64,000 nt of DNA from Candidatus Parcubacteria bacterium (GCA_025999335.1 AP024681.1:523547-587546), one strand, 5' to 3'. Counted from the first letter of the stretch, positions 9,313 through 61,897 are shown. Notes: a model not told the origin generated them from the sequence alone. A program made the numbers and translations.

Positions 9313-10545
9313 ATGTTGAGTATGGCGATCTCGTTTTTAATATTTTCAACTGCAATTAACGCTCAAAGCACTAAAGATTCTGATCAGGATGGCATTTTTG
9401 ATGATAAAGATAACTGCCCTAATGTTTATAATCCTAAACAGGAAGATAAAAATCAAAACGGCATTGGTGATGCTTGTGAAGCAGTTCAATGTCCTGATAG
9501 CTCAACGATTGAGGGATATGTTATGCAATGCAAACAATCAGGTTTAGGTTATGAAACTTATCAAGATCAATCAGGTTGTACTCAAGTAAAATGCGTAACG
9601 ACTCAAAATATTTGTCCAAGCGAAACAGAGATAAATAATGCTGTTCAAAAATGTCAACAATCAGGTTCTGATTTTACTTATTACTATGACAACAATAAAT
9701 GCAAGCAAGTTCAATGTATCCCTAAGCAAAATACCTGTCCATCAGAAGCTGATGTTAATAAAAAAATTGAAACTTGCAGATCTCAAGGTTTAGATTATAA
9801 ATTAGAGTATGATAGTAATAAATGCAAGCAAGTTCAATGTATCCCTAAGCAAAATACCTGTCCATCAGAAGCTGATGTTAATAAAAAAATTGAAACTTGC
9901 AGATCTCAAGGTTTAGATTATAAATTAGAGTATGATAGTAATAAATGCAAGCAAGTTCAATGTATCCCTAAGCAAAATACCTGTTCAAGCTCAGAGACAT
10001 TAAATAGTATTATGGAAGATTGCAAGAAAAAAGGATTGGATTATGAATTTTATGAAGAGAATGGTTGTAAACAAGTAAAATGCAAGATACCCGAAAGAAA
10101 AGAATCAACTGAATGTAAAAAAACTGTACAGGGACAATGCATTACAATAACCTGTGGCGATGGTTATACTTTTAATTCTTGTGATGTTCAAAATATGTGT
10201 AAGAATGTTGAATGCAAAAAATTTACCAATGAAAAAGGTTGTTCAGTGTTAAAATGTTCAAATGGTTATGAAGAGTCAGAATGTCCATCAGAGCCTATCA
10301 AGCCAGAAAAACCAGATAAACCTAAGATAGAGTGCAAAACATTTAAAGATGAAAAAGGATGCACAGTTAAGAAATGTTCTGATGGTTCAGAAACTAAGGA
10401 TTGTCGCAATGTTAGGCCAACAAGAAATAAATGTAAAATTTCTACTTATCAATTAATTACTGGAAGACAGTGCGTGGTTAAAGAATGTACCAATGGTTAT
10501 CGCTCAGATAGTTGTAAGCCAAGCAAAAATAAGACAACGCAATAA
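9313..10545 (+). CDS. Secreted Cys-rich repeat protein with a TSP type-3 Ca-binding repeat
   Basis: Signal peptide, DSDQDGIFDDKDNCP..NPKQED..GIGDAC, many Cys modules. Confidence 0.8.
   Translation: MLSMAISFLIFSTAINAQSTKDSDQDGIFDDKDNCPNVYNPKQEDKNQNGIGDACEAVQCPDSSTIEGYVMQCKQSGLGYETYQDQSGCTQVKCVTTQNICPSETEINNAVQKCQQSGSDFTYYYDNNKCKQVQCIPKQNTCPSEADVNKKIETCRSQGLDYKLEYDSNKCKQVQCIPKQNTCPSEADVNKKIETCRSQGLDYKLEYDSNKCKQVQCIPKQNTCSSSETLNSIMEDCKKKGLDYEFYEENGCKQVKCKIPERKESTECKKTVQGQCITITCGDGYTFNSCDVQNMCKNVECKKFTNEKGCSVLKCSNGYEESECPSEPIKPEKPDKPKIECKTFKDEKGCTVKKCSDGSETKDCRNVRPTRNKCKISTYQLITGRQCVVKECTNGYRSDSCKPSKNKTTQ
9694..9984 (+). repeat. Perfect 123-bp tandem repeat (~2.4 copies)
   Basis: Copies start at 9694, 9817 and 9940. 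Confidence 0.95.
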
Positions 10546-12280: not shown

Positions 12281-13216
12281 CTATTTTTTGTTGTTATTTT
12301 TATTGTTATTTTTTTGAATAGATGCTTTGATGAATTCATCTGGTTCTCTGTGATAGACGGCTGCTTGTTTAATTGTTCAGTCATCTATATGAGGATATTT
12401 TTGTTTTAGGCGTTGAATAGTCTTTAATACTTGCTTAATAAATTGATCCGTTGTACTGGGATGGTGAACAGCGGCGTGTTTAATTATCCAATCATCTATG
12501 TTGTATTTTTCTTTGAGACGCTCAATTTCTCTTAATACTTTTTCAATAAATTGATCGGGTGTTTCATCTTTAATATAATGAACAGCGGCATGTTTGATTA
12601 TTCGTTCATCTATTTGGGGATATTTTTCTTTTAAGCGTTCAATTTCAGTCATTACTTGTTGAATAAATTCATCTATTTTTTTTGGATAATTAATAATAGT
12701 ATGTTTAATAATCCATTCGTCTATAAGAGGATATTTTTTCTTTAATTCTTTTAGAATATTTGGACCTAAAAGATGTTGTCGTTTGGCAATATTAAGAATA
12801 AGCGATGGTGTTAGGCTACTGCCTTTTTTTATCTCGTTTTTTGCTTTTTTTAATACTGATCTAAAACTTAAACCATAAGCTCCAATTATTTTTTTTAATC
12901 TTTCTTTTTGTATTTGTATATTTTGTTTAGGATGTAGAATGCCTATTCTAAATGCAGCTTTGATATTTAATCTTAAACCATCTAAAAAAGTTTGTTCCAC
13001 ATCTTTTATTTCAAGGCCTAATTCTTGAGCAAGATTCAAGATTTTAATTTCATTTAATTTCACTTCAGGATCTGTTTGCCTTAATTCTTCCAAAATATTT
13101 TCAGCTATATTGATAAAACTCTCAACTTTTGCAGTATATTGACCTCTTATTTCTACTTTTTCTTCACGTATTTTTTGTTGTTGTTGCAATTCTTCTTTGG
13201 CTCTTTTTATATCCAT
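12281..13216 (-). CDS. Helical-repeat protein with an internal TGA at 12377-12379 (truncated allele)
   Basis: LKEKY..ID.WIIKHAAVH..PDQFI repeats; the repeat continues 31 codons past the TGA to TAG at 12281. Confidence 0.65.
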
Positions 13217-15802: not shown

Positions 15803-16981
15803 ATGAATTACTTAAAAATAATTATCTTTAATCTAATAGGAGCTGTATTAATAATTGCATTTTTCCATATGCAATTATCTTTGGCTGAAGAAAATAATGG
15901 GTTAAGGAAAATTGTTGTTTTTCAAACAATTTTTAATGAATCTGCCAAAGATGAACTTATTGCTAAAGTTGGCGGTGTAAAACTTAAGAATCTTGATTTA
16001 ATTGGCGCTAAAGCTGTATGGTTGCCTGATCGAGCTGCGGTTGAAAAATTAAAATTACTACCAGGAGTTTTGCGTGTTGATGATGATGTGATTGTTGAAG
16101 CTCTTCAAAAAGGTTCAAATCAGTCAACTCAAATTTTACCTTGGGGAATTGACCGTATTGATGCTGAGTTAGTTTGGCCATTAGGAAATACAGCTGATTC
16201 AATAAAAGTTGGCATTATTGACACAGGCATTTCCAATAAACATCCAGATTTAACTTTAAATATTAGAGGCGGCTACAATGCTATTAATCCTCAAAAATCA
16301 TGGAATGATGATAATGGACATGGTTCGCATGTAGCTGGAATAGTTGCTGCCTTAAATAATACTATTGGCGTTGTTGGCGTTGGTCCACAAATAGATCTTT
16401 ATGCTATTAAAGTTTTAAATGCCAATGGTTCGGGTTATCTTTCTGATGTTATTGAAGGGATTCAATGGGCAATAGCTAACGGAATGCAAGTTGTTAATAT
16501 GAGTTTAGGCACAAGTCAAAATGTTCAATCATTGCATGATGCAGTTGTTGTCGCTAAAAATGCAGGCGTAATCATTGTAGCTGCTGCCGGTAATTCTGGT
16601 GGTTCGGTTTCATATCCAGCTGCTTATAATGAAGTAATTGCTGTTTCTGCCATTGATAAAAATAATCAAATTGCTTCTTGGTCGAGTAGAGGTCCAGAAG
16701 TTGATTTTGCTGCTCCCGGTGTATCTATTTATTCAACTTATAAAGGTACAAGTTATGCTACTCTTTCAGGCACATCAATGGCAGCGCCTCATGTTTCTGG
16801 AGCAATAGCTTTAGTTTTAAATACTTCTGTTGGTTCTTATGATATAAATAATAACGGAAAATGGGATCCTGATGAAATAAAAACAAAACTTTGTGATCGA
16901 GCGGTTGATTTAGGCGATCCAGGAGTAGATAATTTGTATGGTTGCGGTTTAGTTAATGCTTTTAACTCTATTCAGCCATAA
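15803..16981 (+). CDS. Subtilisin-like S8 peptidase with propeptide
   Basis: IIDTG, HGSHVAG, AAGN and GTSMAAPHV catalytic motifs. Confidence 0.97.
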   Translation: MNYLKIIIFNLIGAVLIIAFFHMQLSLAEENNGLRKIVVFQTIFNESAKDELIAKVGGVKLKNLDLIGAKAVWLPDRAAVEKLKLLPGVLRVDDDVIVEALQKGSNQSTQILPWGIDRIDAELVWPLGNTADSIKVGIIDTGISNKHPDLTLNIRGGYNAINPQKSWNDDNGHGSHVAGIVAALNNTIGVVGVGPQIDLYAIKVLNANGSGYLSDVIEGIQWAIANGMQVVNMSLGTSQNVQSLHDAVVVAKNAGVIIVAAAGNSGGSVSYPAAYNEVIAVSAIDKNNQIASWSSRGPEVDFAAPGVSIYSTYKGTSYATLSGTSMAAPHVSGAIALVLNTSVGSYDINNNGKWDPDEIKTKLCDRAVDLGDPGVDNLYGCGLVNAFNSIQP

Positions 16982-17007: not shown

Positions 17008-19083
17008 ATGATAATATTTCATAAACAAGCAATGAAAAAATTTTTATCACTTTTTACACTTATTATTTTTATTTACCTTACCCCTATATTTGTTTTTGCT
17101 CAAGAAAGATTTAATTGGGAGCAAATTTTATTAGATAGAAAAAATACAGGAACTTTGTCAACAAGCTCCTTTTATTTTATGAAAGAAGGGGAAAAGGGGA
17201 AAAAATCTGTTAAGCTTGATCCTGTAAAAAAAGTTGAATTAGAACTAAAATATGGCGATGAAAAGTTAATTGAAATTCAAAAATTAGTAAAAGAGAAACC
17301 GATGAAAGGAAAAATAGTAGCTGTAGGCAGTGGTAAAAAATCTGAAGAAAAATTTATTAAAGCTTTAAAAAAAGCTTTTGACAATTATTTTAAATCTCAA
17401 GAGAGATTAACTGAAATATTAAAATCTTTACCCCAAAATAAAAATACCGAAGAATTAAAACAGAAGATTGCCGAAAGAGTAATTCTTCATCAGGCACTTT
17501 TTGATGAGATAACTGATCAGTTAGGAACAATTACGCAAGGTCAAGAAGTATTAAGAGGAATAGAAAAAAAAGATATTCGTCGCGGAATGGTGATAGCTAA
17601 ACCCGGAACGATAATAGCTCCTCGTTTTGAACAAGTGGTTAATAAACTTCCTTATCCTGAAGGTATTCGTGAGTTAAAAGCTTTAGAAATTTTAACCAGA
17701 ATAGAAGAAAATTTGCCTGAAAAAGCTAAAGAAGAAATCGAGACAGCAAAAAAAGCTATTCAAGAAAAGTTTATTAAAGGAAGAGAGACGCTAAAGCCAA
17801 CTGTGAGTGGGACGGCGGAAGCTGACGCGAAAATAGGAGAATTAAAAATAGAACAAGGAGCTTCGGGTTATCTTAAAGTTGAAGGCGTACCAGTAGAGAT
17901 AAAAGCATTCAATAAAGTCATTGAAGAATTAGAAAAAGAAGTCCAAAAACCTTCATTAGTTACTCAAAGACCAAATGTTGTTAATATTGAAGCATTAAGA
18001 TTATTAACAGAAAAAGTTAAAGAAGCAACTAAAGACGTGCGAAAAATTCAACAAACAACCGATAAATTAGAACAGACTAGAGTACGTTGGTTTAAGCTAA
18101 TAATAGATGATGTTGTCTTTGGCGAATTTAAAGAGATTTCAACAAATGGAGTAAAATCAGAAGGCGAAGATGGATATATTCTTTTGAAAAGCGGTTTTAT
18201 TTCTAAGGGCGGCAGAAAAGCAATGATAGATTGGATTAATGCTACAACCAGAAGAGAAGATCCAAGACGAACCGTTACAATACAACCACTTGATAGCAAT
18301 GGCAATCCTATAAAAACATATACATCCAAATGCGTAGTTATTAATAGCGAAAAAATTAATCTTAACGATAAAACAAAATCTACCATTGAAGAACTCAAAT
18401 TGAAATGCGAACAGAGAATAAAAATAAATGATGTTCCAAGTGAATCTGATTTTAAACAGAAATCAATGGATGAAAATGCCGGCGAGATAGAAAGAAGGTC
18501 TTGCCCCACAATTACTCCCGATATTTTAAAAGGAAAAGAAGAATGCTTAAAAGCAGCTAAGTATCTTGATGAAATATATCCGGGATGCGATTACACAAGT
18601 GCTTGTAAGGTAATGGATAATGATGCTGATGAAGTTCCAGGCTCTCAAAAACCATCTTTAGATTGCGGTCCCGCTCCAGGTGCTCCTGGAAATTGGAGGT
18701 GTATTGACGGCGCCTGGAAAGATGTAAGTCAATGTGGAAAAATTCAATGTATAAAATATTATCCGGTTTGTGGAAGCGATGGTAAAACTTATTCTTGCGG
18801 TGAAATTGATGCTGAATCTTGCGGCGTAAAAGTTGCTTATAAAGGAGAGTGTAAAAAAGAGGAACTTTTAACTCCACCTTTACCTTTGCCACGACAGCCA
18901 CCAGCAACATCGTCACTAAGCGTTCCAGCATTAAGATTACCTCAGGCAATTTTTTGTACCCAGGAATGGAATCCAGTTTGCGGAACAGATAATAAAACTT
19001 ATTCTAATGAATGCACTGCAAAAGCAGCCGAAGTTGGGATTCAATATAGAGGTGAATGTAGATCTTTTGTTTCTCCTTACTAA
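17008..19083 (+). CDS. Secreted mosaic protein: DUF5667-like scaffold, tail-tube gp19-like domain, two Kazal domains
   Basis: Signal peptide; DPVKKVELELK.DEKL.E; PVCGSDGKTY and PVCGTDNKTYSNEC; real start may be the second Met (MKKF). Confidence 0.75.
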   Translation: MIIFHKQAMKKFLSLFTLIIFIYLTPIFVFAQERFNWEQILLDRKNTGTLSTSSFYFMKEGEKGKKSVKLDPVKKVELELKYGDEKLIEIQKLVKEKPMKGKIVAVGSGKKSEEKFIKALKKAFDNYFKSQERLTEILKSLPQNKNTEELKQKIAERVILHQALFDEITDQLGTITQGQEVLRGIEKKDIRRGMVIAKPGTIIAPRFEQVVNKLPYPEGIRELKALEILTRIEENLPEKAKEEIETAKKAIQEKFIKGRETLKPTVSGTAEADAKIGELKIEQGASGYLKVEGVPVEIKAFNKVIEELEKEVQKPSLVTQRPNVVNIEALRLLTEKVKEATKDVRKIQQTTDKLEQTRVRWFKLIIDDVVFGEFKEISTNGVKSEGEDGYILLKSGFISKGGRKAMIDWINATTRREDPRRTVTIQPLDSNGNPIKTYTSKCVVINSEKINLNDKTKSTIEELKLKCEQRIKINDVPSESDFKQKSMDENAGEIERRSCPTITPDILKGKEECLKAAKYLDEIYPGCDYTSACKVMDNDADEVPGSQKPSLDCGPAPGAPGNWRCIDGAWKDVSQCGKIQCIKYYPVCGSDGKTYSCGEIDAESCGVKVAYKGECKKEELLTPPLPLPRQPPATSSLSVPALRLPQAIFCTQEWNPVCGTDNKTYSNECTAKAAEVGIQYRGECRSFVSPY
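19010..19062 (+). repeat. 53-bp direct repeat, copy 1 (3' end of Kazal coding sequence)
   Basis: Identical to 20728-20780. Confidence 0.95.
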
Positions 19084-19141: not shown

Positions 19142-20704
19142 ATGATAGTCGCAAAAAGTTTTTTACTCATTATGAAAATTACAAAAACAATCCTGTTTAA
19201 TTTACTTTTTCTTATCGTCGCTTTATTATTTTCAATTGGCTTTAAACCTATTTTTAGCGCCAGCGTACCTCCTGAATTAGTTCAAGGCAATCCAACTTGT
19301 CAAAGCCTTGGTTATCAATATGAATTTAAAATAAGTCCTCCTAATAGTGGAACCTATTATCTTTTTGGAGATGTTGGTTCAATAACAGTGACCACCACTG
19401 GTCAAGGTACATTTGATTGGAGCTCTACTTTTGCTATTGATGCTGTTATTGCTAAGGGTGGTCCTAGCGCTAATGTTTATAAATATGATCCTCCTTCTGA
19501 ATCATTTAGCGATATAAATTTATCAACGCCTATTAACCAACAAAATAATAAACCTTATGGTTTGGGTCATATTAGTTTTTGTTTTGACATTGATCATCTT
19601 CAAATTTTTAAAACTGCTACTACTTCCTATGATAGAACTTGGAATTGGGATATAGAGAAAACAGCTAATCAATCAGATTTTGGAACAATTAATTTTGGAG
19701 AAATTAAAACAGCTACCTATACAGTAACACTTAGTGCGACTTCAACAGATAGTAACTGGAATGTTAGTGGAACAATAACCATTTTTAATGCCACCACAAA
19801 TCCAGCTGCAATTATTCAAAGTGTTTCTGATTTTCTTAACTTTTCAGGCACAGCGACAGTTACTTGCGGAGTAAGCTTCCCATATACTCTTCCAGGAGGG
19901 CAAACCTTAATTTGTACTTATTCTAAAAATGTTAACGGAACTAATGATAGTTTAAACACTGTTGAAGTTATGGCAATTACTTATTACGGTACTACTACCA
20001 ATAGTTCTGTTCTGATCGGTGGCGGAGTAACCGCTCCAGTAATTTGGGGAAATCCAAATCAAATTGATGAATGTGTGACTGTTAATGATTCTAATTCAAA
20101 TGGTCCTAAAAATCAAATAATTTGTAATACAGATTTAACTAATAATTCTTATACTTTTAATTATTCGGTAACGTTCAGCAAAGATCAAAACTCAGATGTT
20201 ATTTGGCAATGTAATCAAACCGAATATCAAAACACTGCTTCATTTATTGCTTCCGATACTTACACTGCTTCTTCGTCAAGTTGGATAATTAGAGGTAATA
20301 TTGAATGTCAAACTCAACAATTTTGTGCTTTCTCTCAAGGTTATTGGTTTGCTAAGCCTAATGTTGTTTGGCCAGATGTAAATGGTGGAAATTATGGACA
20401 AGTAACAATTGGTGGTTTCGATTATACCCAAAATGAGGGAAAAACAATCTGGAATACTTCTAATAAGGGAGGAATTAAAACAGTAAAGAAAGCTTTTTTA
20501 CAGGTTGCAGCAATTAAATTAAGCGGAGGTACGTCAAATAATTTGCCAGCCTCTGTTTGGGCAGATGTTCAACTTATAGAAAGTTGGCTTAATCAATTTG
20601 GTAAATTAAATCTTAATAATTTTCCTTCAATCAAAGATCAAGCAGTTTTTTCAGCTGCTGGTCGTTTGGGTGACTGGATTGACCAAAATCATTGCTCGGA
20701 CTAA
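19142..20704 (+). CDS. Secreted beta-rich surface protein
   Basis: Signal peptide; Thr/Asn/Ser-rich Ig-like strands; SQGYW motif. Confidence 0.7.
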   Translation: MIVAKSFLLIMKITKTILFNLLFLIVALLFSIGFKPIFSASVPPELVQGNPTCQSLGYQYEFKISPPNSGTYYLFGDVGSITVTTTGQGTFDWSSTFAIDAVIAKGGPSANVYKYDPPSESFSDINLSTPINQQNNKPYGLGHISFCFDIDHLQIFKTATTSYDRTWNWDIEKTANQSDFGTINFGEIKTATYTVTLSATSTDSNWNVSGTITIFNATTNPAAIIQSVSDFLNFSGTATVTCGVSFPYTLPGGQTLICTYSKNVNGTNDSLNTVEVMAITYYGTTTNSSVLIGGGVTAPVIWGNPNQIDECVTVNDSNSNGPKNQIICNTDLTNNSYTFNYSVTFSKDQNSDVIWQCNQTEYQNTASFIASDTYTASSSSWIIRGNIECQTQQFCAFSQGYWFAKPNVVWPDVNGGNYGQVTIGGFDYTQNEGKTIWNTSNKGGIKTVKKAFLQVAAIKLSGGTSNNLPASVWADVQLIESWLNQFGKLNLNNFPSIKDQAVFSAAGRLGDWIDQNHCSD

Positions 20705-20727: not shown

Positions 20728-20780
20728 AATGCACTGCAAAAGCAGCCGAAGTTGGGATTCAATATAGAGGTGAATGTAGA
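20728..20780 (+). repeat. 53-bp direct repeat, copy 2 (orphan Kazal 3' end)
   Basis: Identical to 19010-19062; continues ECRPSVNY* instead of ECRSFVSPY*. Confidence 0.95.
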
Positions 20781-59887: not shown

Positions 59888-61897
59888 ATGAATAGATTAT
59901 TAAAATTATTATTTATAATATTTGTCTTTGTGTTGATGATTGTTGGAATAATAAATGTTAAAGCGGAGAAATTATCTATAAAAAATTCCTTAACAAATCA
60001 TTCATTCTATTCTATAAATTCTACAAAAGACATTTTTGGAAATAAAATCGCCTTTTTTAGTTTTAAGAAAGACAATAAAACTAATTTAACAAGCAAACAA
60101 GATATGATGACAAAAATTTCTGTGCCGCAAGTATTAGCTTTAAATGTTAATAAACAAAATCTTGTAAATAAAAATTTACAAACTTCAAAGAAAAAACAAC
60201 CCTTACGACTTCAAAAAAAATCACGAACCATAAAACAAAATAAAAATGCACCGAAACCAATAAATAAAAATTTAAATAAAAGACAATTACAACAAGATGA
60301 TCAAATTTTTAAAGCAATAAGTCAATATCAAGGAAGTGATTCGTTTGGACAATGCGATTCTTTTTCTCCTCAGGTTATTATCAAGGATATTCAAGATACA
60401 AAGGCGCTGGGTTTTGGTTGGGCAAGGCCTATTGGCGATGTATTTGCCCAAGAAACAGTTGAAAGACAGAATGGTAATTACGATTTTTCTACTCCTGATG
60501 CTGCAGTTAGAAAATTGCAAGCGGCAGGTTTAAGGATTTTTGGCACTCTTTTTCCAACAGGTATGCCTAGAATACCACAATCTGTTGATATAAAAAGTTT
60601 TGAAAATTATGTCAAAGTAATAGTTGATCGTTATAATGGCGATGGCAAAAATGATATGCCAGGACTTGTTACTAAAATTACTCATTGGCAAGTTGGCATA
60701 GAACCATTTTGCACTACTGCTGGCGAGAGTTGTTACAAAAATTTCTTTGATTTAGTGAAAACTGCTTACCAAGCAGCAAAAAGTGTTGATACATCGTTAA
60801 TGATTTCTCCTGGAGGACCAGCTCCTATTTTTGATCCTAACGGCAATGAGGATAGAATGGCTGCTGGTATTTTTGGTTATTTTTTTGAAAATGGTGGCGC
60901 AAATTATATGGACTTTTTCAACTTTCATTATCTTGTTGGAGCAAAAAATCATGATATTAAAAGATACATTGATTATTGGAGAAAGTATATTCCTCAAAAT
61001 AAAGAAATTTGGCTCTCGGAAACTGGTAGTCGTGATGTTGGTGATCGACACACTATATCTTCAAATGTTCAAGAAGAAGCGGATTGGGTAAGAAAACATA
61101 TTAATGATTCTTTCCAAGGTGGCATTGCTAAGATTTTTTGGTGTCGCGCTGAACATTCTTATTCTGATATGCCCGAAGTTGTAAAAGTACTTCAAGAATT
61201 CGCAAAGCAATACGGCGGTAATCCTATATGTTCTGTAACTAAAAGGCAAACTCAACCAATATCTATGCAGTCTAATCAGCAAGGAGTAGTTATGCAAGGA
61301 GGTAACATTCAGGAAGGAAATATGCAGCAATTTGGTGGAACAATACCAGCAACTGGAATGGTTCAACAGGGAGGACAATCCCAGATGTTTGGTATGCCTA
61401 ATTTTTCTCAACAACAAAGTGGAAGTATGATGTCTCCTGGAGGTATGCCAATGCAGGGCAATCAAACGCAAGGAGGACAAACGCAAGGTGGGCAACAACA
61501 ATTTGGAGGTATGATGCAACAATCATTAGGAGGGTTTCAGCAATTTGGAGGCAGTTTTCAACAGCCCGGTGGTATGATGCAACAACAAGTTGGTAGTTTT
61601 CAACAGCCCGGTAATTTTCAGCAATTTGGAGGATTTAGTGGCGGAGGTTATTGTGGCGACAATCAATGCGATTTAATCGAACAACAAACTGGAGGTTGTC
61701 CCCAAGATTGTCGTCAGAATAGTGGGACTTTTAAATCTGGTAGTTTTCAACAATTTAGTACTATGATGCAAACAGATGGAAAAACGCAACCTGTTAATAC
61801 TTTTCAACAAATTAAAAATAATTTGCAGCAACCCGAAAGTTTTAGCTCAGATTGTATTCAGGAATTAAATAGGCAAAATACTAGTTTTCAACAATAG
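59888..61897 (+). CDS. Secreted clan GH-A-like glycoside hydrolase with a Q/G-rich tail
   Basis: HWQVGIEP, DFFNFHY and IWLSETG motifs; QQFGG repeats. Confidence 0.75.
   Translation: MNRLLKLLFIIFVFVLMIVGIINVKAEKLSIKNSLTNHSFYSINSTKDIFGNKIAFFSFKKDNKTNLTSKQDMMTKISVPQVLALNVNKQNLVNKNLQTSKKKQPLRLQKKSRTIKQNKNAPKPINKNLNKRQLQQDDQIFKAISQYQGSDSFGQCDSFSPQVIIKDIQDTKALGFGWARPIGDVFAQETVERQNGNYDFSTPDAAVRKLQAAGLRIFGTLFPTGMPRIPQSVDIKSFENYVKVIVDRYNGDGKNDMPGLVTKITHWQVGIEPFCTTAGESCYKNFFDLVKTAYQAAKSVDTSLMISPGGPAPIFDPNGNEDRMAAGIFGYFFENGGANYMDFFNFHYLVGAKNHDIKRYIDYWRKYIPQNKEIWLSETGSRDVGDRHTISSNVQEEADWVRKHINDSFQGGIAKIFWCRAEHSYSDMPEVVKVLQEFAKQYGGNPICSVTKRQTQPISMQSNQQGVVMQGGNIQEGNMQQFGGTIPATGMVQQGGQSQMFGMPNFSQQQSGSMMSPGGMPMQGNQTQGGQTQGGQQQFGGMMQQSLGGFQQFGGSFQQPGGMMQQQVGSFQQPGNFQQFGGFSGGGYCGDNQCDLIEQQTGGCPQDCRQNSGTFKSGSFQQFSTMMQTDGKTQPVNTFQQIKNNLQQPESFSSDCIQELNRQNTSFQQ

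Follow-up and report, generated by a model that had tools for sequence, protein, structure and literature searches.

Borrowed peptide pieces in the loops of a putatively secreted DUF5667-type protein from a Candidatus Parcubacteria bacterium, and their recurrence in exported proteins of other phyla

The window analyzed here, a 64,000-nucleotide stretch of a Candidatus Parcubacteria genome (GCA_025999335.1 AP024681.1:523547-587546), contains a gene for a putatively secreted protein whose loops hold short pieces of unrelated proteins. Very probably, four features hold together: the loop pieces are foreign and in frame; they belong to a vocabulary common to several phyla; those of identified source derive from abundant proteins and injection machines; and the peptides stay fixed while the codons follow the carrier genome. 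The window gene appears to be one instance of this cross-phylum vocabulary of borrowed, selected peptides. The sources identified, for the window and for the shared vocabulary, are EF-Tu (five pieces), GroES, HU, and LpdA of one Bacteroidia family, gp19 (tail-tube) proteins, and two Myxococcota proteins of a type III secretion locus.

Architecture and foreign pieces of the carrier gene

The carrier is predicted to be a secreted helical scaffold of the DUF5667 type with an eroded tube domain and two Kazal domains (Table 1). The likely start of the open reading frame (ORF) agrees with the database protein P0002 (683 aa) and with homologues, which begin at MKK. The scaffold runs on beyond the DUF5667-type domain to about 18080; close homologues are annotated with PF18915, and L200 (56.3 bits) and L202 (41.3 bits) both score above the cut-off of 27. 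At 52.9 bits over two stretches, vs. a cut-off of 21, the protein belongs to the Kazal family (PF00050). The tube domain, which the initial annotation had not mentioned, stays below the PF06841 cut-off (19.5 vs. 28.2 bits), and is read as an eroded homologue because its positional counterparts in P0005 and P0019 score above the TIGR02241 cut-off. An intact tube domain lies at this place in P0005, P0019, and P0168, that of P0005 being 84% identical to a standalone tube of 147 residues. In the AlphaFold model (built from 17 sequences; mean pLDDT 66.6), the GroES, EF-Tu, and third pieces are low-confidence loops between helices, and YLKVEGVP is a well-predicted hairpin. A fold search with the whole model gives no match at an E-value of 0.001 or better, and no function is described in the literature searched for DUF5667 proteins with Kazal domains.

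Table 1. Features of the carrier gene and its upstream neighbor, in window coordinates.
Feature	Coordinates	Strand	Evidence or remark
S8 subtilase gene, directly upstream of carrier	15803..16981	+	PF00082, E 5.8e-63
Carrier gene	17032..19083	+	683 aa from likely start; 691 aa from 17008
Putative signal peptide	17032..17100	+	Read from sequence and homologues
DUF5667-type domain (helical scaffold)	17161..17436	+	PF18915, 15.9 bits, cut-off 27; includes MKEGEKG
Loop 1, GroES piece, 17 residues	17290..17340	+	17/17 identical to G453 GroES
Loop 2, EF-Tu piece, 19 residues	17551..17607	+	About EF-Tu residues 280-298
Loop 3, TLKPTVSGTAEADAKI, 16-residue piece	17788..17835	+	Foreign codon usage; common only to P0003
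YLKVEGVP, scaffold beta-hairpin	17869..17892	+	Homologue alignment, model, variation in homologues
Eroded gp19 / contractile-injection tube domain	18085..18420	+	PF06841, E 9e-4, under cut-off
Kazal domain 1	18748..18858	+	Comes after Cys-rich region
Kazal domain 2	18952..19059	+	PF00050, 52.9 bits for whole protein

The genome that holds the window (G000) is one contig of 680 kb, with 28.5% GC and 98.9% completeness; we infer a small-genome symbiont of the Patescibacteria type. Metagenome runs containing the window stretch carry the label hot springs metagenome, and there is no RNA holder among the runs listed with it. The order of subtilase and carrier gene is kept in G109, whose syntenic orthologue has none of the motifs searched for (a piece-free orthologue), and carriers in Thermomonas, Thiomonas, and L184 likewise have a subtilase as neighbor. 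Elsewhere in the window, a secreted protein rich in Cys (9313-10545) opens with a TSP3-like segment and contains internal repeats, near-perfect and about 45 residues long, and 12377-13216 encodes a small protein of repeated helical units with no confident Pfam match.

The four peptides singled out in the initial annotation are all present at the positions given, in frame, in the ORF (17008 or 17032 to 19083), and its impression that the GroES and EF-Tu versions are Bacteroidota-like proved correct, the donors being Bacteroidota. The loop 1 piece also matches the G453 GroES at 18 of the 19 residues of the span originally marked (NCBIfam GroES, E 1.8e-4), and among the 28 EF-Tu loci listed for G443 relatives, 13 have the loop 2 piece exactly (19/19; TIGR00485, E 3.2e-5). 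Only these 17 and 19 residues match, with scores far under the cut-offs for full-length GroES or EF-Tu. Comparison with the genome's own genes, which had been proposed as a check, gives 9/20 for GroES and 14/19 for EF-Tu, and rules out an own-genome origin. Identity to the donors ends sharply at the edges of both pieces. In 200 shuffles of the protein, searched against a donor set of 1.2 million residues, the longest exact match is at most 9 residues vs. 19 in the real protein; no other ORF among the 622 of the genome has such a match in a non-homologous protein. The GroES piece differs from G453 at 8 of 17 codons, always synonymously and at the third position, and the EF-Tu piece from G448 at 9 of 19, all synonymously.

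A degenerate DNA scan of genomes for the 11-residue EF-Tu core returned at least 120 loci, among which those listed are 115 EF-Tu genes (with titles nearly all Bacteroidota), one archaeal EF-1alpha, and four non-EF-Tu genes. The EF-Tu version of the carriers is a minority one (4 of the 115 EF-Tu genes among the matches listed), of the type of 'Bacteroidia bacterium SKW94' (G443). By sequence comparison, the GroES and EF-Tu pieces can be called proven foreign to this genome, and both trace to one Bacteroidia family. Both pieces appear to be old, because their codons are adapted to this genome and 8-9 synonymous differences separate them from the nearest donor. An assembly artefact is ruled out: the pieces recur in contigs from three other studies, and the EF-Tu piece is also present in two cultured isolates.

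The third piece, TLKPTVSGTAEADAKI, is probably foreign, judging from its DNA. Its GC is 0.54 and its GC3 0.50, vs. 0.34 and 0.19 for the gene, and its codon z of -4.65 is a value so low that 0.09% of genome windows reach it; one synonymous change towards host usage is seen in it in 3 of 4 runs. The piece occupies a variable loop, and the label of a bacterial Ig repeat, suggested for it at the outset, is unconfirmed because no donor was found: among 27 candidates the piece occurs only in P0003, it is present in 0 of 301 Bacteroidota genomes, and its four viral matches stand in unrelated contexts. Both middle pieces had been described as locally GC-richer than the gene, which is so for the third piece and not for the EF-Tu piece (GC 0.38, normal codon use). 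Two of the five pieces originally proposed are scaffold, not captured. YLKVEGVP, once compared with Hcp, is a scaffold beta-hairpin found at the same place, with variation, in close homologues, and MKEGEKG, once likened to a cold-shock protein, aligns as an eroded form to the conserved scaffold motif LKEWGRG. Both segments occupy scaffold positions common to homologues, and the Hcp and cold-shock readings are not supported. Outside the window, the genome encodes a secreted cupredoxin-like protein (G000:C1 647190-648014) whose N-terminus has a 13-residue piece in common with loop 2 of the homologue P0024, and in part with P0019; this protein is possibly a second carrier.

Homologues, carriers in other phyla, and sources

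Alignment of homologues had been proposed as a check on the pieces, and in the 162 collected by scaffold similarity, different pieces fill the same three loops with clear boundaries. At least one of 11 motif classes is borne by 31 of the 162, vs. one in reversed sequences, a count that is descriptive only since the motifs were defined from these same proteins; the other 131 are without any of the motifs searched for. Loop 2 holds, according to the homologue, EF-Tu 280-298, the EF-Tu C-terminus, the HU N-terminus, an LpdA piece, or a Myxococcota piece, and in close pairs the loop contents are swapped on otherwise similar backbones. Three sites, in 14 of the 162 homologues altogether, hold the window's EF-Tu piece. 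Of 27 homologues compared at site three, 7 have it and 20 do not, and the 7 carriers are identical there at 15/15 residues, their whole proteins being 62-83% identical; loop 2 of P0007 holds a decayed EF-Tu version (9/19). The homologue tree (43 rows caught by pattern) has weak support except for the branch that splits off the site-three clade. The NCBI labels of P0009 and P0011 (archaeal) and of P0168 (Omnitrophica) may be binning errors, and these proteins were left out of the evidence on range. The product of window 59888-61897 has a C-terminal half very similar to a domain that P0011 bears fused to its DUF5667 scaffold, which suggests that whole domains are also swapped onto the scaffold.

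The four non-EF-Tu carriers among the at least 120 genome loci belong to Thermomonas haemolytica DSM 13605, Thermoflavifilum thermophilum DSM 14807, a Thiomonas MAG, and a Verrucomicrobiota MAG. In a metagenome scan whose pattern was designed to leave out EF-Tu genes, 41 of 41 loci were classed as non-EF-Tu by script; in about 20 carriers recovered without this pattern, the piece reaches at most two residues to the left of the EF-Tu core. Carriers of the EF-Tu piece form about ten scaffold clusters, among them Rhs proteins, outer-membrane-type proteins of large size, and tiny proteins of a signal peptide plus pieces. Some carriers (L184, L405, L437, and L438) are scarcely more than a putative signal peptide followed by pieces. 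An Atlas search with L184 returned unnamed clusters only, and no upstream DNA is common to the 37 carrier loci compared. The distribution is patchy, given one clear further EF-Tu-piece carrier among 60 Thermomonas relatives. Third-position GC of the EF-Tu piece tracks carrier GC from 0.13 to 0.93; codons thus follow carrier GC while peptides stay fixed (the 11-residue core being fixed by construction in loci found by DNA pattern), which argues that selection acts on the peptide.

Five carrier pieces match EF-Tu, with the G443 type as the best match for four, and two others correspond to HU of that Bacteroidia family. In a scan of 2.0 of the 2.6 Mb of G451, the only proteins matched over more than 9 residues are EF-Tu, HU, GroES, and three others, with a maximum of 8 residues in the reversed control; at least two of the three other proteins resemble carriers inside the donor family. 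The donor-family genome has such pieces in two proteins, one of them without an evident signal peptide. Several recurring pieces have no donor in the part of G451 scanned, and the remaining ~0.6 Mb may hold donors; recognizable donors are biased towards conserved proteins. Several families of short dispersed intergenic repeats (G451 loci L299, L305, L313, L341, and others) appeared as repeated spurious peptides in the six-frame self-scan of that genome.

Among the Myxococcota sources, the HDT-type piece is the C-terminus of a protein encoded beside an SctI-like gene, whose match of 18.4 bits lies under the cut-off of 39, and pieces of both type III-locus proteins recur in homologues. In Thermomonas and a relative (L437 and L438, in G805 and G301), exported mosaics are composed of pieces from the two proteins. 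A 174-kb contig of a viral collection (L434, IMGVR_UViG_3300036985_006248) bears two Myxococcota-type type III-locus genes among small phage-like ORFs. Four gp19 tube proteins (P0169, P0171, P0172, and P0173) start with signal-peptide-like segments, which is unusual for contractile-injection tubes, and are possible exported decoys. No prior description of such pieces was found in the full texts searched, which include few subscription journals.

Entry and persistence of the pieces

Uptake of environmental DNA followed by short-patch illegitimate recombination would bring the pieces in, and they may often come from another carrier instead of the original gene. The reuse of one fixed EF-Tu segment suggests one capture, then spread between carriers. 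ComEC is encoded in 5 of the 5 genomes tested, G000 included. SPDIR is reported to yield foreign patches of 3 to about 100 bp and to be boosted by natural transformation (10.1101/2023.11.22.568220); the window's pieces, of 51, 57, and 48 bp, lie inside this size. Saturation of synonymous sites leaves any microhomology at the junctions of the GroES and EF-Tu pieces unreadable.

The search for a reverse transcriptase that had been suggested at the outset found no PF00078 in G000, and domain searches found no reverse transcriptase in G000, G216, or G302; Cas1 is likewise absent from the four genomes searched for it, G000 and relatives. Three other studies yielded contigs that cover the pieces at about 99% identity, with no indel or swap in the gene. 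Two changes fall inside pieces, both synonymous, among 40 of 148 differences listed, from contigs that drop rare variants. This stability implies a slow turnover and, together with the absence of reverse transcriptase and Cas1, argues against a live array of the CRISPR kind. No repeat family flanks the pieces (direct repeats of the spacer-array kind were searched for), and tblastn of the protein against its own genome returns itself, a 3' duplicate, the genome's own EF-Tu, and weak matches only, with no template repeat. Among 84 neighboring or carrier proteins from 24 loci (84 of 107 ORFs), there is no common mobility gene, and transposase-like domains lie beside carriers only at L188 and L190. 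A phage or plasmid vector was considered and rejected: the EF-Tu and HU patterns have no matches in viral contigs, and tblastn finds nothing meaningful in phages or plasmids. The single viral-contig match to the HDT motif was likewise dismissed as a carrier, being a native gene.

An exact 53-bp direct repeat (19010-19062 and 20728-20780) corresponds to the 3' end of the carrier gene and flanks a 1.7-kb segment containing the secreted ORF 19142-20704. Contigs of runs X2 and X6 pass from 19062 into the sequence after the second copy, which suggests that the segment is absent in some strains. In the donor family, L296 (G453:C36) encodes a reverse transcriptase with, by reading, a DGR-like motif; reverse transcriptase domains also occur in G449 and G450.

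Function, rival explanations, and known systems

The retention of exact peptides in exported loops of unrelated folds points to a reader outside the cell, and the pieces would be kept for what that reader sees. Anti-predator mimicry by exported epitope display is given about an even chance as the function of the carrier. The most likely reader would be a contact-dependent predator or competitor, which the display might lead to mistake the cell for kin or for one already under attack; the Kazal domains may shield the display against proteases. The source proteins are those offered in large amounts by a predator or a lysed cell. Myxococcus xanthus is reported to kill prey with a type III-like system, and its self/non-self mechanism is stated to be unknown (PMC10433427). 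Against mimicry, pieces of cytoplasmic EF-Tu, GroES, and HU are no obvious surface marks of 'self'; against the Bacteroidia donor family as the predator imitated, tube genes are sparse there (9 of 41 genomes, and none in the closest six listed); and the decayed piece of P0007 (9/19) and the eroded tube domain of the window speak against universal conservation. It is rather unlikely that a dedicated process enters in-frame fragments of the weapon subunits and most abundant proteins of predators into exported proteins, as a heritable camouflage or immune memory shared by prokaryotic communities, with the fragments circulating between phyla and predators (such as Myxococcota and some Bacteroidia) recognizing kin by these very peptides.

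Carriers could also be precursors of secreted signal peptides, from which the subtilase frees pieces that resemble what lysed cells leave behind and serve to alarm or jam sensors common to a community; plant phytocytokines are an analogue of such debris-imitating signals. A subtilase does stand beside the carrier in the window, G109, G301, G303, and L184, an ECF sigma factor adjoins L184, a Y_Y_Y sensor kinase with a LytTR regulator lies upstream of L157/L196, the small carriers are strings of pieces with linkers, and the sources are abundant proteins that lysis would free. This is nevertheless unlikely, since most carrier neighborhoods are without a protease (84 proteins scanned), G109 keeps its subtilase next to a piece-free orthologue, pieces are also embedded in Rhs proteins and in large proteins of outer-membrane type, tube domains are captured whole, and no common cleavage motif flanks the pieces. 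The initial annotation had proposed a display scaffold filled, like a spacer array, with pieces possibly derived from a host. Its scaffold stands, with exposed loops bearing foreign pieces of abundant proteins; a host-filled array is not supported. Both identified window pieces trace to one family, the third looks recent, and the 680-kb genome is symbiont-like, all of which would suit a small symbiont capturing pieces of a host in the Bacteroidia donor family for host recognition. That reading is very unlikely given that the same pieces occur in free-living carriers of several phyla (the EF-Tu piece in Proteobacteria, Bacteroidota, and Verrucomicrobiota), that the GroES and EF-Tu pieces are old, that the pieces are stable across runs, that the genome has no Cas1 or reverse transcriptase, and that one fixed EF-Tu segment is reused in place of staggered captures.

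Exported tubes and type III C-terminal helices might instead poison the assembly of attackers' injection machines, with EF-Tu, HU, and GroES pieces absorbing toxins or proteases, as the intact tube domains of P0005, P0019, and P0168, the signal-peptide-bearing tubes P0169 and P0171-P0173, and the Kazal domains in the same chain would allow. Bait for the carrier's own attackers should copy its own EF-Tu, not a foreign version, and the window tube is eroded, which leaves this explanation very improbable. Neutral debris, left by mutation (possibly templated on RNA) that inserts bits of abundant transcripts into loops able to tolerate them, is most improbable: zero amino-acid changes vs. 8-9 synonymous ones largely refute it, the pieces are better conserved than their own scaffolds, and the transcripts used would be foreign, not own, with no reverse transcriptase in G000, G216, or G302. 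It is favored by sources of highly expressed gene types, by the placement of pieces in low-confidence loops, by the decay of some, and by DGR-like reverse transcriptases in 3 of 6 donor-family genomes searched.

The pieces represent horizontal transfer at a scale of 10-25 codons, in which housekeeping and weapon genes of one phylum contribute to unrelated exported proteins in many other phyla and selection keeps the peptide exact; they escape standard annotation because every piece scores far under family cut-offs. That one borrowed set recurs in exported proteins that are unrelated and belong to distant bacteria suggests a molecular disguise or signal held in common. If, as in epitope display, predators read the pieces, these constitute a list of candidate ligands for predator self/prey discrimination, whose mechanism is stated to be unknown (PMC10433427). 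The phenomenon is testable in two cultured carriers, Thermomonas haemolytica DSM 13605 and Thermoflavifilum thermophilum DSM 14807, and provides a first functional handle on the DUF5667 surface proteins of small symbiotic bacteria.

Among known systems, SPDIR resembles the window in its foreign patches (3 to about 100 bp; 48-57 bp here) and in its increase by transformation, ComEC being present; SPDIR is rare, mostly harmful, and random, whereas pieces of the window type recur in frame in several phyla, with conservation at the peptide level. CRISPR spacer acquisition (by RT-Cas1 also) is alike in its short foreign sequences of similar length, taken from abundant genes and exchangeable in series; in contrast, no repeats flank the pieces here, the genome has neither Cas1 nor reverse transcriptase, and the pieces are translated, drift synonymously, and are common to several phyla. 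Diversity-generating retroelements act by adenine mutagenesis on variable loops of exported proteins in small-genome bacteria, and variable loops, export, and small genomes recur here; G000, however, has no reverse transcriptase and no template repeat was seen, and variation is by foreign segments instead of adenine mutagenesis. Epitopes of EF-Tu and of type III rod and needle proteins are read by plant and animal immune receptors. Short-linear-motif mimicry similarly involves the display or outside reading of epitopes that are short, conserved, and drawn from abundant proteins or machine parts, although the motifs here are homologous copies from other prokaryotes, in environmental bacteria, with no known receptor. 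The closest proteins in architecture are the DUF5667-Kazal proteins (PF18915, PF00050), which have the same scaffold and C-terminal domains, and among which 31 of the 162 homologues have recognizable borrowed pieces.
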